A stretch of DNA of 64,000 nt from Dehalococcoidia bacterium. Its GTDB lineage: Bacteria > Chloroflexota > Dehalococcoidia > Lucifugimonadales > UBA3495. Within the stretch, counting starts at the first letter, position 1. The number at the start of each line of letters is the position of its first letter. Below, in pieces: positions 9,876-62,309 of the stretch. Below the pieces are notes generated by a model. That model did not search any database. It had not been told where the DNA came from and saw only the letters and a list, made by a program, of their open reading frames with translations. The position numbers and the translations under genes are program-made. The stretch is taken from positions 198,024-262,023 of the forward strand of contig CBDCQE010000003.1 of the NCBI GenBank assembly GCA_965220505.1, read 5' to 3'.

Positions 9876-10388
9876 TCATTCTCCGCTGTCAGTTTGCGTC
9901 GGCTCGAAATCGGGCGGCAGGTCAAATGTCGGACGCCCATCCGGACGGTGGCTGTGGGACAGAATGGCCATCATCAGTTGGTAGTGGTTGCGTTGCATCT
10001 GGAGCTGCATCTGCGTGACCGTGTTTTTCAACTCGTTGATAGAGGTTTGCAGAGCCTCCGTCTTTTCGTTGATAGAGGTTTGCAGAGCCTCCGTCTTTTC
10101 GTTGATAGAGGTTTGCAGAGCCTCCGTCTTTTCGTTGATAGAGGTTTGCAGAGCCTCCGTCTTTTCGTTGATAGAGGTTTGCAGAGCCTCCGTCTTTTCG
10201 TTGATAGAGGTTTGCAGAGCCTCCGTCTTCTCAGTCAGCGAAGTCCTGTTTCCGGCCACTTCTGAATCCAGCCTGCCTATGTCGCGCAAGATGCTTCCCA
10301 TGCGGTTCCATAGAGCCATCATCGCGCCGAGCATGAACAGAAGGACGGCACCGTAGATAATGGAGGGGATGAGTTCGGTTATCGGCAT
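9876..10388 (-). CDS. membrane-anchored protein with six tandem 11-residue repeats (KTEALQTSINE)
   Basis: N-terminal TM helix ITELIPSIIYGAVLLFMLGAMMALW, then a 6x hendecad repeat encoded by 33-bp tandem repeats. Lower GC (~48% in the repeat unit). Start could be 10388 or 10430. Confidence 0.65.
   Translation of the reverse strand: MPITELIPSIIYGAVLLFMLGAMMALWNRMGSILRDIGRLDSEVAGNRTSLTEKTEALQTSINEKTEALQTSINEKTEALQTSINEKTEALQTSINEKTEALQTSINEKTEALQTSINELKNTVTQMQLQMQRNHYQLMMAILSHSHRPDGRPTFDLPPDFEPTQTDSGE
10035..10232. repeat. 6 x 33-bp direct tandem repeat (gttgatagaggtttgcagagcctccgtcttttc)
   Basis: Read directly. Units start at 10035, 10068, 10101, 10134, 10167 and 10200. Five are identical and the last has one substitution (cttctc). 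There are no spacers, so this is not CRISPR. Confidence 0.95.
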
Positions 10389-10432
10389 TTTCGGTACCCT
10401 GCATTTACGAGTGATTACGAAGCGCCACAATG

Positions 10433-12807: not shown

Positions 12808-12813
12808 TATAAT
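12808..12813 (+). promoter_or_regulatory. candidate -10 box (TATAAT) upstream of the putative retron ncRNA
   Basis: A perfect TATAAT lies 8 nt upstream of the left inverted-repeat arm (12822). No convincing -35 at 17-bp spacing. Confidence 0.35.
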
Positions 12814-12821
12814 GCATTATT

Positions 12822-12984
12822 GAGTTGCCCACGGTAGATTAATCATTGCCGCTGATCCAGCGGTGACCTCTTCCAAGGTTCGCTTTAGCTCGCTATCGCA
12901 ATCCCAGGTTGTTGTAGTTAGTCTGTCTCGTGTCGCATGGTCAATGTGGCGGCGAGGAATGTGAAAATCGACCGTGGGCATCTC
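12822..12984 (+). ncRNA. candidate retron msr-msd non-coding RNA region bounded by a1/a2-like inverted repeats
   Basis: Left arm gagttgcccacggtagatt (12822-12840) is the reverse complement of right arm aatcgaccgtgggcatctc (12966-12984) at 17/19 positions, with a perfect 10-bp core tgcccacggt/accgtgggca. The right arm ends 20 nt before the RT start codon. There is an internal hairpin ccgctg-atc-cagcgg at 12849-12863. No experimental or covariance support. Confidence 0.35.
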
Positions 12985-13004
12985 GTGATTTTGGAGGGGA
13001 GACT

Positions 13005-14573
13005 GTGGACCTGACTTTGACACGAAACCCCAGCGATTATCAGGAACTGTTTCGGAACTTAGGCCATCCGAAAGACGTTGCCGATTTGCTCGAGGTTCCA
13101 TACCAAACTCTCAATTACTGGATTTACGCTACAAATGAGGATAAGAGATATACCACGTTCCACATTCCCAAAAAAACAGGTGGTCACCGCCAAATTGACG
13201 TGCCTAACGACAACATCAATATTCTGCAACAGAAGTTGAACACAGTTCTGCAGTCAGTTTACCGAGTTCGACCTAGTGCACATGGATTTGTCACTGGCAG
13301 GAGTGTCAAATCCAATGCTCAGCAACACATTCAAAAATTTTGGGTATTTAACTTAGACCTCGACAATTTCTTTCACACAATACATTTTGGTCGAGTCCGG
13401 GGCATGTTCATGGCCAACCCGTACAACCTTCCAGAACGAGTGGCGACTGTACTGGCTCATTTGTGCTGCCACCAAGGCCGCTTGGCTCAAGGTGCCCCGA
13501 CGTCACCTGTTGTTAGCAACATGATCTGCGCCAAGATGGATAGCCAACTCCAGCGCTTAGCCCACGATACCAGATCATGGTACACCCGCTACGCGGATGA
13601 CATCACGTTTTCCACCAGACGTAAAAGGTTTCCTACGGATTTGGCATCGCTGAACGAACTCGGTCAAGTGCAGATCGGCCATCGTTTGGTTGAGCTAATC
13701 GAACAGAACGGTTTCATGGTCAATAGAGACAAAGTTCGATTGCGGGGGCAACATCAACGCCAAGAGGTGACCGGGGTTACGGTAAACGACATCACGAATG
13801 TCCCTAAGCGCTTTGCGAACCAAATCCGGGCCATGCTGTACGCGTGGAAACGATTCGGCTTGGAAGCCGCTCAGCGAGATTGGGAAGAAAAATATGACCA
13901 TAAGAACAGAGGCCCGGGGCATTCTGCTCCTCGCTTCGAGCTCGTTTTGAAAGGAAAGATCGAATACTTGGGAATGATCAAAGGGCATGAGGCACCAACG
14001 TATCTCAAGTTCATGGACCAACTGGGCGACTTGGATTCTCGCCTTGCTCATGGACGTGGGACTCCGCTACATTTGCTTCTACGAAAATACCGTGAACTTG
14101 AAGCCGACTCATCACACCGACAGGGCAGAGGATATCAATTTGAAGACGTTATGAACGAACTGTTCACGCTATGCGGAGTAGCAGTATCAAAAAGTTTTAC
14201 AAGGAACGACGGCGGCGAACAGATCGATGGCGCTTTCGAGCTAGACGGATCATATTATTTGGTAGAGTGCAAATGGCGCGAAGCTTTGACACGCCAAGCC
14301 GAGGTCGACGCGTTTTCAGGTAAGATAGGGAGATCGGGGGATCATACTGGCGGTTTGTTTATATCAGTGAACGGATGGACCGATCACGTGCTAGGGCTAA
14401 CCAAACAAAACAGAGACAAAAGCGTGTTTTTCATGGACGGACTTGACGTATCCACGGTCCTTTCGGGAGAACTAGATTTCATTGATCTTCTTAGGGAGAA
14501 AATCAACGCACTCAACATTAAAGCAGAGCCTTTCGTTAGTGCGAAGTCGATCATTGGTAGCCGGCAAGACTAA
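13005..14573 (+). CDS. retron-type reverse transcriptase fused to C-terminal Mrr-like PD-(D/E)xK nuclease domain
   Basis: RT motifs:
- HGFVTGRSVKSNAQQH (NAxxH at 13314-13328)
- FNLDLDNFFHTI
- LAQGAPTSPVVSNMICAKMD
- YTRYADDITFS (YADD at 13590-13601)
- QEVTGVTV (VTG at 13767-13775)
These are collinear with Ec86-type retron RTs.
The C-terminal ~170 aa contains GYQFEDVMNELF...GEQIDGAFELDGSYYLVECKW...GGLFISVNGWT (D at 14226, E-x-K at 14265-14273).
Start chosen as the GTG at 13005, after GGAGGGGAG (12993-13001). The tracked ORF starts at 12930. Confidence 0.88.
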   Translation: MDLTLTRNPSDYQELFRNLGHPKDVADLLEVPYQTLNYWIYATNEDKRYTTFHIPKKTGGHRQIDVPNDNINILQQKLNTVLQSVYRVRPSAHGFVTGRSVKSNAQQHIQKFWVFNLDLDNFFHTIHFGRVRGMFMANPYNLPERVATVLAHLCCHQGRLAQGAPTSPVVSNMICAKMDSQLQRLAHDTRSWYTRYADDITFSTRRKRFPTDLASLNELGQVQIGHRLVELIEQNGFMVNRDKVRLRGQHQRQEVTGVTVNDITNVPKRFANQIRAMLYAWKRFGLEAAQRDWEEKYDHKNRGPGHSAPRFELVLKGKIEYLGMIKGHEAPTYLKFMDQLGDLDSRLAHGRGTPLHLLLRKYRELEADSSHRQGRGYQFEDVMNELFTLCGVAVSKSFTRNDGGEQIDGAFELDGSYYLVECKWREALTRQAEVDAFSGKIGRSGDHTGGLFISVNGWTDHVLGLTKQNRDKSVFFMDGLDVSTVLSGELDFIDLLREKINALNIKAEPFVSAKSIIGSRQD

Positions 14574-33537: not shown

Positions 33538-33579
33538 GCGCGCCTCGCCCGCGTGCGCACCCGCTTTCGTTGGGGAGTT

Positions 33580-33689
33580 GTCAGAAGCAGGATTTGCGGG
33601 ATTTTGTGATTGGACAGGATTGGGAGGGCTTCATCAGGGAACGGTTCCAATTCTGGTAATCCTCAAATCTTGAAAATCCTGCTTCTGAC
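33580..33689. repeat. 110-bp palindromic MITE-like repeat, copy A
   Basis: gtcagaagcaggatttgcggg...aaaatcctgcttctgac. The termini are inverted repeats. Intergenic. Highly similar to the copies at 37049 and 62200. Confidence 0.9.
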
Positions 33690-33881
33690 GGTTCCGTGCC
33701 GGACGCCGGCGGCTGGGCGGGTGATTTGGGCGCAAATGGGGGGAATCGGGCGAAATCGGGGTGAGGTTATGGAGATGTGATCAAAAACTCGCAGTAGATT
33801 GTGCTTCGGTCATGCAGTTTTGCGGTATAGTACGGGCCGAGTTACGGTGACGAGACCAGCCGGACTAGGAGGGCACTCACC

Positions 33882-36800
33882 ATGTTCCGCCGTGAAAACC
33901 CCATACCTGTCAGCCCCCCTCCGATCTTTAGGATAGTGAAACTTACATCGTGGCGCGCGCTGTTCGCGCTGCTGGCGATTGGGCTGCTGGCCGCAGGAGT
34001 GGCCGGCTTTTTCATGTCCGGCGCAGTCGCACAGGCCCAGGAGCAGGAGACGGTCCTGCCGTCCAGCTACGATGCCGACGGCGACGGGCTGATTGAGATC
34101 AGCAGCCTGGACCAGCTCAACGCCGTCCGTTGGGACCTGGACGGCGACGGCGTACCCTCGGCAGGCAACGCGGACGCCTATTCCGCCGTCTTCCCGGTTG
34201 CCGACGAAGGCTCGGTATGCCCCGCCGACGCCACCTGTACAGGGTACGAGCTGACGACAGACCTGGACTTCGACGAGAACGATGACGGTGAAATCACCAG
34301 CGCCGACAGCGCATACTGGAACGACGGGGTGGGGTGGACCCCCATCGGCGGGTATGCCGCCGTGTTCGAAGGCAACGGCCACACCATCGCCAACCTGTTC
34401 ATCAGACGCGCAGCCGATTACGCGGGGCTGTTCGGCTCAGTGGGAGACGGCGGCATAGTGCGCAACTTGGCGCTTACGGGCGTATCCGTCAGCGGTGGGG
34501 ACTTCGTGGGCGGGCTGGCTGGATACAGCACTGGAGCGATCATCGCCAGCTACGCCACGGGTTCGGTCAACGGTAGTTCCTCAGTGGGAGGTCTGGCTGG
34601 ATACAACACTGGAAGGATCGTCTCCAGCCATGCTGCGGGTTCGGTCAGCGGCACAAACGACGTGGGCGGTTTGGTTGGATACAACATTGGAGGGATCATC
34701 GCCAGCTACGCCACGAGTTCGGTCAGCGGTAGTTCCTCCGTAGGGGGCTTGGCCGGGAAAGGCCAGGGCAGGATTATCAACGCCAGCTACGCCACGGGTT
34801 CGGTCAGCGGTAGTTTCTCCGTGGGGGGACTGGTCGGACATAACAGTGCAAAGATCAGCGCCAGTTACGCCACGGGCTCGGTCAGCGGTAAATCCGACGC
34901 GGGTGGCCTGATCGGAAAAAACAGTGGAAGGATCAGCGCCAGTTACGCCACGGGTTCGGTCAACGGCACACAGGCTGTGGGCGGCCTGGTTGGAGAAAAC
35001 ACCGGAAGGATCAGCGCCAGCTACGCCATGGGCTCGGCCAGCGGTACAAAAGGCGTGGGCGGCTTGACCGGATACCACACATACGGAGGGATCAAAGCCA
35101 GTTACGCCACGGGTTCGGTCAGCGGCACAGAATATGCAGGTGGCCTGGTTGGATATTACCACTCTTACCTTGGAACGATCAGCGCCAGCTACTTCGACGC
35201 TCAGACATCCGGCCGGGCGATTGCCGTGGGCAATGACGATACCGACAAAAACGGGGCCATCGACGGCGCTGAGACCGCCTCCTCCGGCGCCACTCCCCAG
35301 ACCACTGCCGCGCTCCAGTCCCCCACCGGGTATACCGGCATTTACTCCGACTGGAACCTGGACCTGAACGCCAACTCTCAGCCGGATAGCCCCTGGGACT
35401 TCGGCACGGCGTCCCAGTATCCGGCGTTGAAGGGGGCCTCCAACTGGCAGGATTTTGGCTATCAGACGCGCCGGCCGCTCTCCCTGACCTCCAGTATCTC
35501 CGGGCTCCAGGCAACGCTGAGTTGGGACGACATCACCGAAACGGCGTGGACCGGCACGCCACGGGCATCCTACGCCCTTTATAGGGACGGCGAGAAGGTG
35601 CCCGACTACGACGAAAGTTCACGCTCCTACACCGATACTAGCCTCACCCTGGGCCAGCAGTACACCTACCAGGTGGCTCTGCTGCTGGACGGTGTGGAAC
35701 ACCGCCGCAGCAACGAGGTCTTTACAACGATCAGCGAACCGCTCTCCTTTGGCGACGCACAGCACTACAATTACTACTGGTATCAGAACCAGCACAACGG
35801 CCGGCTGGACCTGCCCACGGCCACAGGCGGCGTTCTTCCACTGACCTACACTGTCAGCCCCGACCTGTCCCCCGGCCTGGTCTTTGACTCTGGCTATCTC
35901 ACCATCGATGGAATTCCCACCGAGACCCAGGAGCGCATCCAGTACGCCTACACGGTCACCGACGCCAACGGCGACACGGCGTCGCTGTCCTTCAGCATCC
36001 TGGTGGCGCCGGATCCAACGACGGTCGCCGAGACCAGCCCGGTGACGGTGAGCGCAACCAGCCTTTCCATCCGCGAGGGCGACCCCGCCGCAACCTACAC
36101 CGTGACGCTGGAGGTGGGGCCTACGGAGAACGTGGTCATCGCGATCAGCAGCAACAACGGCGACGTTACGGCGCAGCCGTCCAGCCTCACCTTCACCACC
36201 GGCAACTGGCAGACGGCACAGACAGTAAGCGTCAGCGCCGGCCAGGACGACGACCGGGTGGACGACACCGCCACCTTCAGCCACAGCGCCAGCGGCGGCA
36301 ACTACGACGGCGTTACGGTGGCGTCCGTAACCGTCAGCGTAACCGACGATGACAGCGACCGGGAGGTGCTGCGGGACTTCTACAACGCCACCGGCGGTCA
36401 GAGCTGGACCAACATCGGCAACTGGCTGAGCGACAAACCGCTGGGTGAGTGGCACGGTGTAACCACCAACGGATCGGGGCAAGTAACTGGGCTGGCCCTC
36501 CGGGACAACGGACTGAGCGGGTCGCTGCCCGCCACATTGGGCAAGATGGAACACCTGCAAGTCCTGTCCCTGGACCGCAACAACATCAGCGGTAGCCTAC
36601 CCGCCGAGTTCGGCAACCTGTCCAACCTGACCCGGCTGGCGATGAACCGGAACAGTCTCAGCGGTGCCATACCGTCGCAGTTGGGCAACCTGTCCAACCT
36701 GGGCATCATCGGCTTGGCGCGGAACAGCCTGAGCGGGTCGCTGCCCACCAGCCTGGGCAACCTGAGCAGTTTGACCAAGGTGTCGCTGCACGACAACACC

Positions 36801-36971
36801 GGGTTGAGCGGGGCGCTGCCGTCGGGGTTCACCAACCTGGCGAACCTGCAACGGCTGGCCATCGCCAACACCGGGTTGTGTCTCCCGGACACCCAGGCGT
36901 TCGACGACTGGCTGGCCGGCGTTCCCGACAAGCCCGGGATCGACGGGCTGACGGACTGCGCCTCGCCATAG
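33882..36971 (+). CDS. large secreted protein with GLUG-motif repeats, Calx-beta-like module and C-terminal plant-type leucine-rich repeats
   Basis: Signal/TM segment WRALFALLAIGLLAAGVAGFF.
- DGDGLIEISSLDQLNAVRWDLDGDG.
- More than 12 repeats of ASYATGSVSGxxxVGGLVGxNxGxI (GLUG), approx 34400-35200.
- SLSIREGDPAATYTVTL...VTVSVTDDD (Calx-beta-like), approx 36040-36350.
- LRRNT-like REVLRDFYNATGGQSWTN, then LSGSLPxxLGNLSNLxxLxLxxNSLSG repeats, approx 36360-36900. Confidence 0.85.
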   Translation: MFRRENPIPVSPPPIFRIVKLTSWRALFALLAIGLLAAGVAGFFMSGAVAQAQEQETVLPSSYDADGDGLIEISSLDQLNAVRWDLDGDGVPSAGNADAYSAVFPVADEGSVCPADATCTGYELTTDLDFDENDDGEITSADSAYWNDGVGWTPIGGYAAVFEGNGHTIANLFIRRAADYAGLFGSVGDGGIVRNLALTGVSVSGGDFVGGLAGYSTGAIIASYATGSVNGSSSVGGLAGYNTGRIVSSHAAGSVSGTNDVGGLVGYNIGGIIASYATSSVSGSSSVGGLAGKGQGRIINASYATGSVSGSFSVGGLVGHNSAKISASYATGSVSGKSDAGGLIGKNSGRISASYATGSVNGTQAVGGLVGENTGRISASYAMGSASGTKGVGGLTGYHTYGGIKASYATGSVSGTEYAGGLVGYYHSYLGTISASYFDAQTSGRAIAVGNDDTDKNGAIDGAETASSGATPQTTAALQSPTGYTGIYSDWNLDLNANSQPDSPWDFGTASQYPALKGASNWQDFGYQTRRPLSLTSSISGLQATLSWDDITETAWTGTPRASYALYRDGEKVPDYDESSRSYTDTSLTLGQQYTYQVALLLDGVEHRRSNEVFTTISEPLSFGDAQHYNYYWYQNQHNGRLDLPTATGGVLPLTYTVSPDLSPGLVFDSGYLTIDGIPTETQERIQYAYTVTDANGDTASLSFSILVAPDPTTVAETSPVTVSATSLSIREGDPAATYTVTLEVGPTENVVIAISSNNGDVTAQPSSLTFTTGNWQTAQTVSVSAGQDDDRVDDTATFSHSASGGNYDGVTVASVTVSVTDDDSDREVLRDFYNATGGQSWTNIGNWLSDKPLGEWHGVTTNGSGQVTGLALRDNGLSGSLPATLGKMEHLQVLSLDRNNISGSLPAEFGNLSNLTRLAMNRNSLSGAIPSQLGNLSNLGIIGLARNSLSGSLPTSLGNLSSLTKVSLHDNTGLSGALPSGFTNLANLQRLAIANTGLCLPDTQAFDDWLAGVPDKPGIDGLTDCASP

Positions 36972-37032: not shown

Positions 37033-37048
37033 ATTGGCGGGGGGGAAC

Positions 37049-37158
37049 GTCAGCAGCAGGATTTGCGGGATTTTATGATTGGGCGGGATTGGGAGAGTTC
37101 CAGCGCAGAACGGTTCCAATCCTGATAATCACGAAATCTTGAAAATCCTGCTGCCGAC
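37049..37158. repeat. 110-bp palindromic MITE-like repeat, copy B
   Basis: gtcagcagcaggatttgcgggattttatgattgggcgggattgggag...ccaatcctgataatcacgaaatcttgaaaatcctgctgccgac. Intergenic, between the GLUG/LRR gene and rpsA. Confidence 0.9.
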
Positions 37159-37335
37159 GACTTACGAAAGGGAGGTACGCGGGCCTCCGGGTTTTGCGGT
37201 TGCAATTTGTGTGCGGTATAAGTATTATTAGGCAGGCGAATTGTGGGGAAAGTGATCCAAGCGAGAACGAAGTACCTGCTCAACCTGTGCGGCCGCGTAA
37301 CCGGCCGTAAGCCAGAGTAAGGAGCAGCTTAACTG

Positions 37336-62199: not shown

Positions 62200-62309
62200 G
62201 TCAGAAGCAGGATTTGCGGGATTTTATGATTTGGCAGGATTGGGAGAGATCCATCACAGAACGGTACCAATCCTGATAATCACCAAATCTTGAAAATCAT
62301 GGTTCTGAC
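62200..62309. repeat. 110-bp palindromic MITE-like repeat, copy C
   Basis: gtcagaagcaggatttgcgggattttatgatttggcaggattgggag...ccaatcctgataatcaccaaatcttgaaaatcatggttctgac. Lies in the divergent intergenic region between the desaturase and the helicase. Confidence 0.9.

Follow-up and report, generated by a model that had tools for sequence, protein, structure and literature searches.

We describe a probable retron in a 64,000-nucleotide (nt) stretch of a Dehalococcoidia genome (contig CBDCQE010000003.1, positions 198,024 to 262,023 of the forward strand). This whole stretch is referred to as the window, and coordinates are positions within it unless another locus is named. With good confidence, the locus can be read as a single-gene retron: an msr-msd non-coding RNA (ncRNA; ~12820-12985) followed by a gene (13005-14573) for a reverse transcriptase (RT) fused to a PD-(D/E)xK nuclease of the Mrr type. 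An initial annotation, made from the letters of the sequence, had proposed a candidate msr-msd locus at this place. We find the proposal supported by covarying a1/a2 arms, a covarying msr hairpin (P1), a recurring -10 box, and a retron-lineage RT downstream. The inverted repeat on which the annotation was founded is real, and it is part of a conserved structured ncRNA of the retron (msr-msd) kind. The annotation passed over the C-terminal Mrr-type nuclease domain, which, judged by sequence, distinguishes this system from the retron types already described.

We also lean, with less assurance, towards a wider reading: that the locus represents an undescribed retron type of RT clade 8, in which an RT fused to a Card1/Mrr-like PD-(D/E)xK nuclease would be guided or caged by a multicopy single-stranded DNA (msDNA) of ~80 nt. 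Its ncRNA, marked by a GAUCC-loop hairpin and a GCUUUACGCUCGC...GCGAGGAAAGCGAAAAU frame, would then be the chassis of a sub-clade that swaps Mrr, Toprim, trypsin-like protease, caspase, and SLFN/AlbA_2 domains, members of type XI included. The features of the locus are these:

12808-12813, + strand: -10 promoter box TATAAT (sequence; positional conservation)
12819-12988, + strand: whole ncRNA, msr-msd (covariance model R1, introduced below; 130 bits, E 2e-30)
12822-12840, + strand: a1, 5' arm of the closing stem, GAGTTGCCCACGGTAGATT; outer helix 12822-12835, inner GAUU 12837-12840
12837, + strand: candidate branching (priming) G, context UAGAUU (from Ec67-family context)
12847-12865, + strand: msr hairpin P1, UGCCGCUG-AUC-CAGCGGUG (most conserved part; GAUCC loop motif)
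12866-12879, + strand: possible, weakly supported second msr hairpin P2, ACCU...AGGU (minimum-energy fold)
12879-12893, + strand: 5' strand of the msd-domain stem, UUCGCUUUAGCUCGC (conserved; pairs with 12952-12965)
12886-12957, + strand: presumed msd template region (two imperfect hairpins, 12886-12925 and 12926-12957)
12952-12965, + strand: 3' strand of the msd-domain stem, GCGAGGAAUGUGAA (conserved; presumed template start)
12966-12984, + strand: a2, 3' arm of the closing stem, AATCGACCGTGGGCATCTC
12993-12999, + strand: ribosome-binding site GGAGGGG (sequence; 5 nt 5' of the GTG start codon)
13005-14573, + strand: RT-nuclease fusion gene, 522 amino acids (aa), GTG start
~13164-13784, + strand: RT domain (Pfam RVT_1)
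to ~14120, + strand: helical thumb and linker
~14127-14444, + strand: Mrr_cat PD-(D/E)xK domain (Pfam)

The inverted repeat was found again in the sequence as it had been read: arms at 12822-12840 and 12966-12984, complementary at 17 of 19 positions, spaced by 125 nt, and sharing a perfect 10-bp core (TGCCCACGGT / ACCGTGGGCA). Between the end of the right arm and the GTG at 13005 there are 20 nt, with GGAGGGG at 12993-12999 ahead of the GTG; the small hairpin CCGCTG/CAGCGG stands at 12849-12863 as reported. Inverted repeats of this quality (at least 17 of 19 positions, loop of 3-200 nt) occur at 3 sites in the 64-kb window, against a mean of 0.15 in 20 dinucleotide shuffles of the same sequence. 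The folding check suggested by the annotation yields a stable structure: the 181 nt from 12815 to 12995 fold at -72.6 kcal/mol (z = -5.5; equalled by 0 of 200 shuffles), with the arms closing the structure, and the opposite strand forms a weaker fold (-55.4 kcal/mol). The annotation was also correct in seeing no long, clean msd hairpin; two imperfect hairpins, at 12886-12925 and 12926-12957, stand in its place. A search of Rfam at a permissive E-value matched no RNA family to the element and returned a single chance miRNA match inside the open reading frame (ORF).

Comparison across relatives carries most of the argument. We assembled 22 loci with a gene for the full RT-Mrr fusion (homologues 35-82% identical) from genomes of Dehalococcoidia, other Chloroflexota, and Syntrophorhabdales, and from metagenomes. 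An element of 144-172 nt lies just 5' of the start codon (0-25 nt) in all 22, and in every locus with the element it is on the + strand relative to the RT gene. The elements were aligned with plain MAFFT, not fitted to structure (alignment A2), and the consensus structure was obtained with RNAalifold. In the a1/a2 stem, the arm sequences vary among the loci and complementarity is kept: compensatory double changes are seen at 13 of 13 outer pairs, where 89% of cells are paired, and the inner four pairs reach 77%. For the whole structure, 85% of cells are paired, compared with 40-46% after a shift of the partners by 1-3 columns, and the observed pairing counts were reached in none of 500 shuffles. 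Each of the 22 elements outperforms its own shuffles in folding (z -3.2 to -7.1), the window element at z = -5.5 to -5.7. The annotation had named a repeat that is not conserved upstream of homologous RTs as grounds for giving up the idea. The outcome is the opposite: a covarying repeat in 22 loci.

Within the closing stem, the 8-bp hairpin P1 has 95.5% of its cells paired and double changes at 3 pairs. It also holds conserved G-U pairs (UG in 18 of 22 loci, GU in 13 of 22). These are compatible only with an RNA of the + strand, which is thus the RNA strand. On the 3' side of P1, two conserved strands, UUnGCUUUACGCUCGC and GCGAGGAAAGCGAAAAU, pair with one another and enclose a variable insert; the helices of this msd-domain stem (helices 5-7) are 78-93% paired. 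The insert, presumed to be the msd, differs between loci in sequence and length (45-70 nt), and it folds into one or two imperfect hairpins in each of the 22; single or double msd hairpins belong to the definition of a retron (PMC7736814). The region of P2 allows two pairings, ACCU/AGGU and the alternative AAGG/CUUU, and all partners are conserved.

Alignment A2 was the basis of a covariance model, R1. In the window, scanned on both strands, the sole match of R1 is 12819-12988. A covariance model from homologous loci was among the checks that the annotation had proposed, and R1 recovers the element upstream of relatives that had no part in building it, directly 5' of the RT and on the same strand, for example in L007 (91.7 bits), L015 (74.3), L087 (66.4), L089 (61.6), and L088 (59.8). 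At a threshold of E < 0.01 unless noted, matches among relatives are distributed over the types of C-terminus as follows:

Toprim-like C-terminus (motif-based; no Pfam match): 17 of 22 loci
RTs without a C-terminal domain (short RTs, mainly cyanobacteria): 12 loci
Trypsin-like protease C-terminus: 6 of 49 loci; L089 at 61.6 bits
TIR C-terminus: 4 of 21 loci, weak; L057 at E 0.01
Caspase-like C-terminus: L093, weak, 22.1 bits
SLFN/AlbA_2 C-terminus: L018, 46.4 bits

Conserved across 55 aligned elements are the AUU that ends a1, the UG...GAUCC...GC hairpin, and AAGGUU.GCUUUA.

The survey with R1 produced observations on related RTs that stand on their own. Clear homologues of the element lie directly upstream of canonical type XI protease-fused RTs at L089:2326-2483 (61.6 bits), L016:2833-2982 (31.7), L023:2782-2931 (28.2), and L028:2821-2974 (24.4); 43 of the 49 sampled protease-fused RTs gave no match. 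A caspase-like Peptidase_C14 domain is fused to the close RT relatives L093 and L102 (Pfam 4e-28), and SLFN/AlbA_2 is fused to the close relative L018 (2e-13). R1 elements are located at L093:2279-2462 (22.1 bits, weak) and L018:2824-2973 (46.4 bits), and none was found at L102; both kinds of fusion are likewise outside the 13-type retron scheme. Cyanobacterial relatives (L008-L010, L013, L014, and L036; Nostoc, Geminocystis) encode short RTs of ~360 aa with no fused effector, and their homologous ncRNA lies 106-123 nt 5' of the start codon, compared with ~20 nt here. Their effector may be encoded separately or be absent. Finally, eight metagenomic clade-8-like RTs (L131, L135, L136, L138, L143, L149, L155, and L160) share a C-terminal domain of ~170 aa that has no match in Pfam, and R1 detected no ncRNA upstream of them.

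The promoter box follows the same pattern of recurrence. TATAAT is present at 12808-12813, as annotated, and a similar box lies at a like distance in 14 of the 22 RT-Mrr loci: there, a TATAAT-like hexamer (5-6 of 6 matching) starts 7-11 nt before the model start. Of 29 other R1-positive loci, 12 have such a hexamer beginning 8-12 nt ahead of the model start, and any other position is used by ~1 locus each. Several loci have an extended -10, TGTATAAT. From the position of the -10 box, transcription is predicted to begin at ~12820-12822, the first base of a1, in agreement with the earlier suggestion of a start at the left arm.

The protein downstream is, on sequence criteria, a retron-lineage RT with NAxxH (region X), YADD, and VTG (region Y). 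Pfam RVT_1 covers residues 54-260 (1.9e-18), and the motifs NAQQH (104-108), YADD (196-199), and VTG (255-257) show little or no variation among 26 homologues. Among solved proteins, the RT of Retron Ec67/Eco2 is nearest, both in sequence (5.8e-54 over residues 21-285) and in fold, judged from the AlphaFold model (1e-22; mean pLDDT of the model 78); Abi and DRT structures resemble the RT in fold only remotely. The best PADLOC profiles, RT-Protease_XI (447 bits), RT-TIR_XII, and RT-Toprim_I-C, match the RT part only, and the first of these matches reaches profile position 354 of 510 and stops there. The retron models of NCBIfam are likewise confined to the RT part, and all fall below their cut-offs, with Retron_TIR_antiphage on top (365 bits, cut-off 600) and retron_Ec67_fus at 333 bits (cut-off 450). 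Pfam found no Trypsin or TIR domain in the protein. A longer ORF from GTG 12930 was considered and rejected: homologues align from 13005, which has the ribosome-binding site, and 12930 lies inside the conserved RNA.

The C-terminal part matches Pfam Mrr_cat over residues 375-480 (1.4e-6; 28.8 bits against a cut-off of 21), and Mrr_cat scores range from 28.8 to 30.9 bits, all above the gathering threshold of 21. In the 26 homologues, D408 and E421 are invariant, the latter within a motif E421-C-(K/R)423. A profile of the domain aligns its D...ECK motif to the CARF-nuclease PD-(D/E)xK domain of 8z4i (E 4e-6). The predicted secondary structure (helices H372-389 and H431-444; strands E393-400, E406-413, E416-423, and E448-454) is the alpha-beta-beta-beta-alpha-beta core of PD-(D/E)xK nucleases. 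The same module (~150 aa, 45-55% identical) recurs in ~100 stand-alone proteins of 305-320 aa. These proteins (P0182, P0186, and others; ~314 aa) have an unannotated N-terminal domain of ~165 aa without a Pfam match, and their hosts are bacteria and archaea (Methanoperedens, Marsarchaeota, Neomarinimicrobiota, Acidobacteriota); they may be another defence effector family with the same module. Short C-terminal matches of 199-272 aa were considered as split systems and rejected: these sequences begin inside the RT thumb and are thus truncated gene calls.

Full-length homologues of the RT-nuclease protein number well over 100 (47-82% identity), and no record in the plasmid collection encodes the full fusion. 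The window's protein itself has no identical entry on record. Neighbouring genes differ from locus to locus, with no partner gene conserved among the RT-Mrr loci, which makes the fusion a single-gene system; two loci (L162 and L163) are syntenic with the window. Gene content and the nearest genomes suggest that the window comes from a marine or soil member of the Chloroflexota. With a G+C content of 45-52% between flanks of 65-70%, the cassette seems to have been acquired horizontally; a search for direct repeats on either side of it (target-site duplications) found none. In a rough neighbour-joining (NJ) tree of RT domains, calculated without support values, a single, nearly pure clade takes in 19 of the 22 Mrr-fused RTs. 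Its sister is the protease-fused L089, and TIR-fused RTs are separate.

Two further features of the window are recorded for completeness. An intergenic repeat of ~112 nt is dispersed at 33579-33690 and 37048-37159, with terminal inverted repeats of 18-19 nt (GTCAGAAGCAGGATTTGC ... GAAAATCCTGCTTCTGAC). The two full copies flank a 1029-aa ORF (33882-36971), and a third copy of the repeat's 5' core is found at 62207-62225. The repeat looks like a miniature inverted-repeat transposable element (MITE) or a repetitive extragenic palindrome (REP), and it has no match to R1. Separately, 9876-10430 on the - strand holds a 184-aa ORF with six tandem copies of the 11-residue TEALQTSINEK and an apparent N-terminal hydrophobic segment; its G+C content is 51-52%, compared with 65-70% in most surrounding genes.

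The position at which reverse transcription would be primed can be proposed from the Ec67 family. In Eco2 the branch point is G15, directly 3' of a1 (PMC12916289). In the Ec67-family loci L172 and L173, a1 is followed by TA-G-ATTT, and window positions 12833-12840 read GGTA-G-ATT. The UAGAUU common to the window and these loci makes G12837 the best candidate for the branching G, a choice that, on sequence, we rate somewhat better than even. Its column is G in 15 of the 22 loci, and in 3 more the G sits one position away. G12848, at the base of P1, is the one invariant G in the vicinity and an alternative candidate.

We propose the following course of events. The ncRNA and the RT mRNA would be co-transcribed from the promoter with the -10 box at 12808-12813. 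In the transcript, a1 (12822-12840) would pair with a2 (12966-12984) and enclose P1, possibly a second small hairpin, and the variable msd domain. The RT would bind the msr through recognition of the msr hairpin and prime on the 2'-OH of a guanosine, most likely G12837, at the inner end of a1. The msd template would be copied leftwards from ~12965, and synthesis may stop near the conserved GCUUUAG (~12882-12888), as termination in Eco2 suggests. This would yield a branched msDNA some 70-85 nt long. Eco2 keeps its fused TOPRIM nuclease caged by the msDNA; when a phage nuclease breaks the msDNA down, tRNA cleavage follows (PMC12916289). By analogy, the msDNA would stay bound here and keep the fused nuclease in an inactive state until a phage factor degraded or altered it; the freed nuclease would then cleave nucleic acids and abort the infection. 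We infer cDNA synthesis, the priming G, and the length of the msDNA; the caging and the role in defence are taken by analogy from Eco2.

Several results weigh against the retron reading. A promoter and terminator scanner made no promoter call at 12808, because no matching -35 hexamer is available; the sequence has no consensus -35. P2 is paired in 62% of cells across loci. Short, and with weak structure when taken alone, the msd part differs from the long stable stems of classical retrons: the insert by itself has a mean z of -1.5 over the 22 loci and -3.4 in the window, and this modest structure is the reason that no long, clean hairpin is visible by eye. The proposed branching G is absent at its column in L083, L085, L099, and L170. 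Applied with filters off to the Ec67-family loci L172 and L173 (E. coli, Enterococcus), R1 found nothing significant, with 3-4 bits just 5' of the RT. Homology with proven msr-msd elements consequently rests on topology and one short motif, and sequence-level homology with the Ec67 ncRNA is not claimed. As for the effector, the catalytic lysine 423 is an arginine in roughly a third of homologues, so nuclease activity is not certain across the family.

The short, weakly structured msd-like part and the lack of an invariant priming G would also suit a structured RNA that acts as template or cofactor for non-retron reverse transcription of the kind seen in DRT2 (concatemeric cDNA made by rolling circle) or DRT9 (poly-dA). 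ncRNAs upstream of defence RTs are known outside retrons, and DRT2 and DRT9 structures are among the distant fold matches. We nonetheless hold this to be unlikely: the RT is far below the NCBIfam cut-offs for Drt2 (30 bits against 390) and Drt3a (27.8 against 200), it has the retron-specific NAxxH and VTG, its closest relatives in sequence and fold are all retron RTs, and the a1/a2-msr-msd topology is that of retrons. Somewhat less probable again is a 5' leader with a purely cis-regulatory role, governing how a toxic RT-nuclease mRNA is translated or how stable it is, and never reverse transcribed. The element does occupy the position of a 5' untranslated region: the start codon is 20 nt away, no terminator intervenes, and a fused nuclease would have to be expressed under tight control. 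A leader, however, has no need of a variable insert framed by conserved strands, and co-evolution with the RT, whatever the fused effector domain, would not be expected of it; the conserved RT active site, for its part, implies that a template exists.

We give very little credence to a repeat that acts at the DNA level, such as transposon or MITE ends or a recombination site, or that is a chance match. The cassette looks horizontally acquired, and the window contains an unrelated MITE-like repeat with terminal inverted repeats. Against this stand the covariation of arms whose sequence itself is not conserved, the tolerance of G-U pairs on one strand only, the lack of flanking direct repeats at the cassette, and the fixed distance of the element from the RT gene, always on the same strand; chance would supply 0.15 such repeats per 64 kb. 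The retron reading is the one we retain.

If functional, the fusion would provide a fourth (or later) effector domain for clade-8 single-protein retrons. R1 provides a well-supported ncRNA model for a sub-clade in which the ncRNA was previously unknown or poorly defined, and it would let such loci be annotated in environmental genomes, where they now appear only as "reverse transcriptase domain-containing protein" (in the style of PGAP). A compact RT fused to a DNA/RNA nuclease, with an ncRNA of ~165 nt, could interest retron-based genome engineering. One RT-ncRNA chassis with five or more interchangeable effectors would also be a natural experiment on how msDNA controls unrelated effectors.

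The C-terminal fusions described for RT clade 8 are Toprim (type I-C), protease (XI), and TIR (XII), and the ncRNAs of types XI and XII were not determined in that work (Mestre et al. 2020, PMC7736814). Protease-less lineages resembling type XI have since been reported from Bacteroidota and Bacillota, with separate WYL or DnaB_C partners and candidate ncRNAs of their own; that preprint does not mention a nuclease fusion (Toro 2026, bioRxiv 10.64898/2026.05.14.725207). Searches of the open-access literature did not turn up any retron RT with a fused Mrr or PD-(D/E)xK domain, and a fusion of an RT to a restriction-endonuclease-like domain is absent from the current retron classification.

Among known systems, the effector domain alone resembles Card1/Can2-type CARF nucleases and Mrr-family nucleases, through the D...ECK alignment to 8z4i and the Mrr_cat score above threshold. 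Unlike these, the present protein has no CARF sensor or DNA-binding N-terminal domain, an RT-msDNA module would do the regulating, and some members of the RT-Mrr family replace the lysine with arginine. The protein does not belong with the UG/Abi/DRT defence RTs. With type XI it shares its best PADLOC profile, in the RT part, and the protease-fused sister L089 of the rough NJ tree carries a homologous ncRNA (61.6 bits). It differs in having no protease domain, and 43 of 49 sampled protease-fused RTs are without an R1 match. [quoted passage not shown] Type XII (RT-TIR) has the same RT clade and single-gene layout and supplies the top NCBIfam match, but the 365 bits of that match are below the cut-off of 600, no TIR domain is present, TIR-fused RTs form a separate clade, and R1 matches them weakly in 4 of 21 loci only.

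The closest solved RT relative is that of Retron-Eco2 (Ec67; type I-C1), a single RT-TOPRIM protein with an msr-msd (PDB 9I2F, 9LM3; PMC12916289). Both systems are in RT clade 8 (PMC7736814); both place the ncRNA directly 5' of one gene whose product runs from RT through a helical thumb to a C-terminal nuclease; and UAGAUU at the inner end of a1 is found in Ec67-family loci too. The differences lie in the effector, which is TOPRIM there and a PD-(D/E)xK Mrr-type nuclease here (the C-terminal TOPRIM signature of type I-C, EGxxD ... DxD, is lacking, and retron_Ec67_fus scores 333 against 450 bits), in the ncRNA, since R1 does not match those of the Ec67 family, and in the hosts: Chloroflexota and further environmental lineages here, enterobacteria or Bacillota there. 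The locus has the sequence features of a retron, with a candidate branching G that varies among loci and an msd of modest structure, and lacks the effector features of types I-C, XI, and XII; it is thus placed within retrons and under no named type. By analogy, it would resemble Eco2 in its working, as a variant within clade 8.

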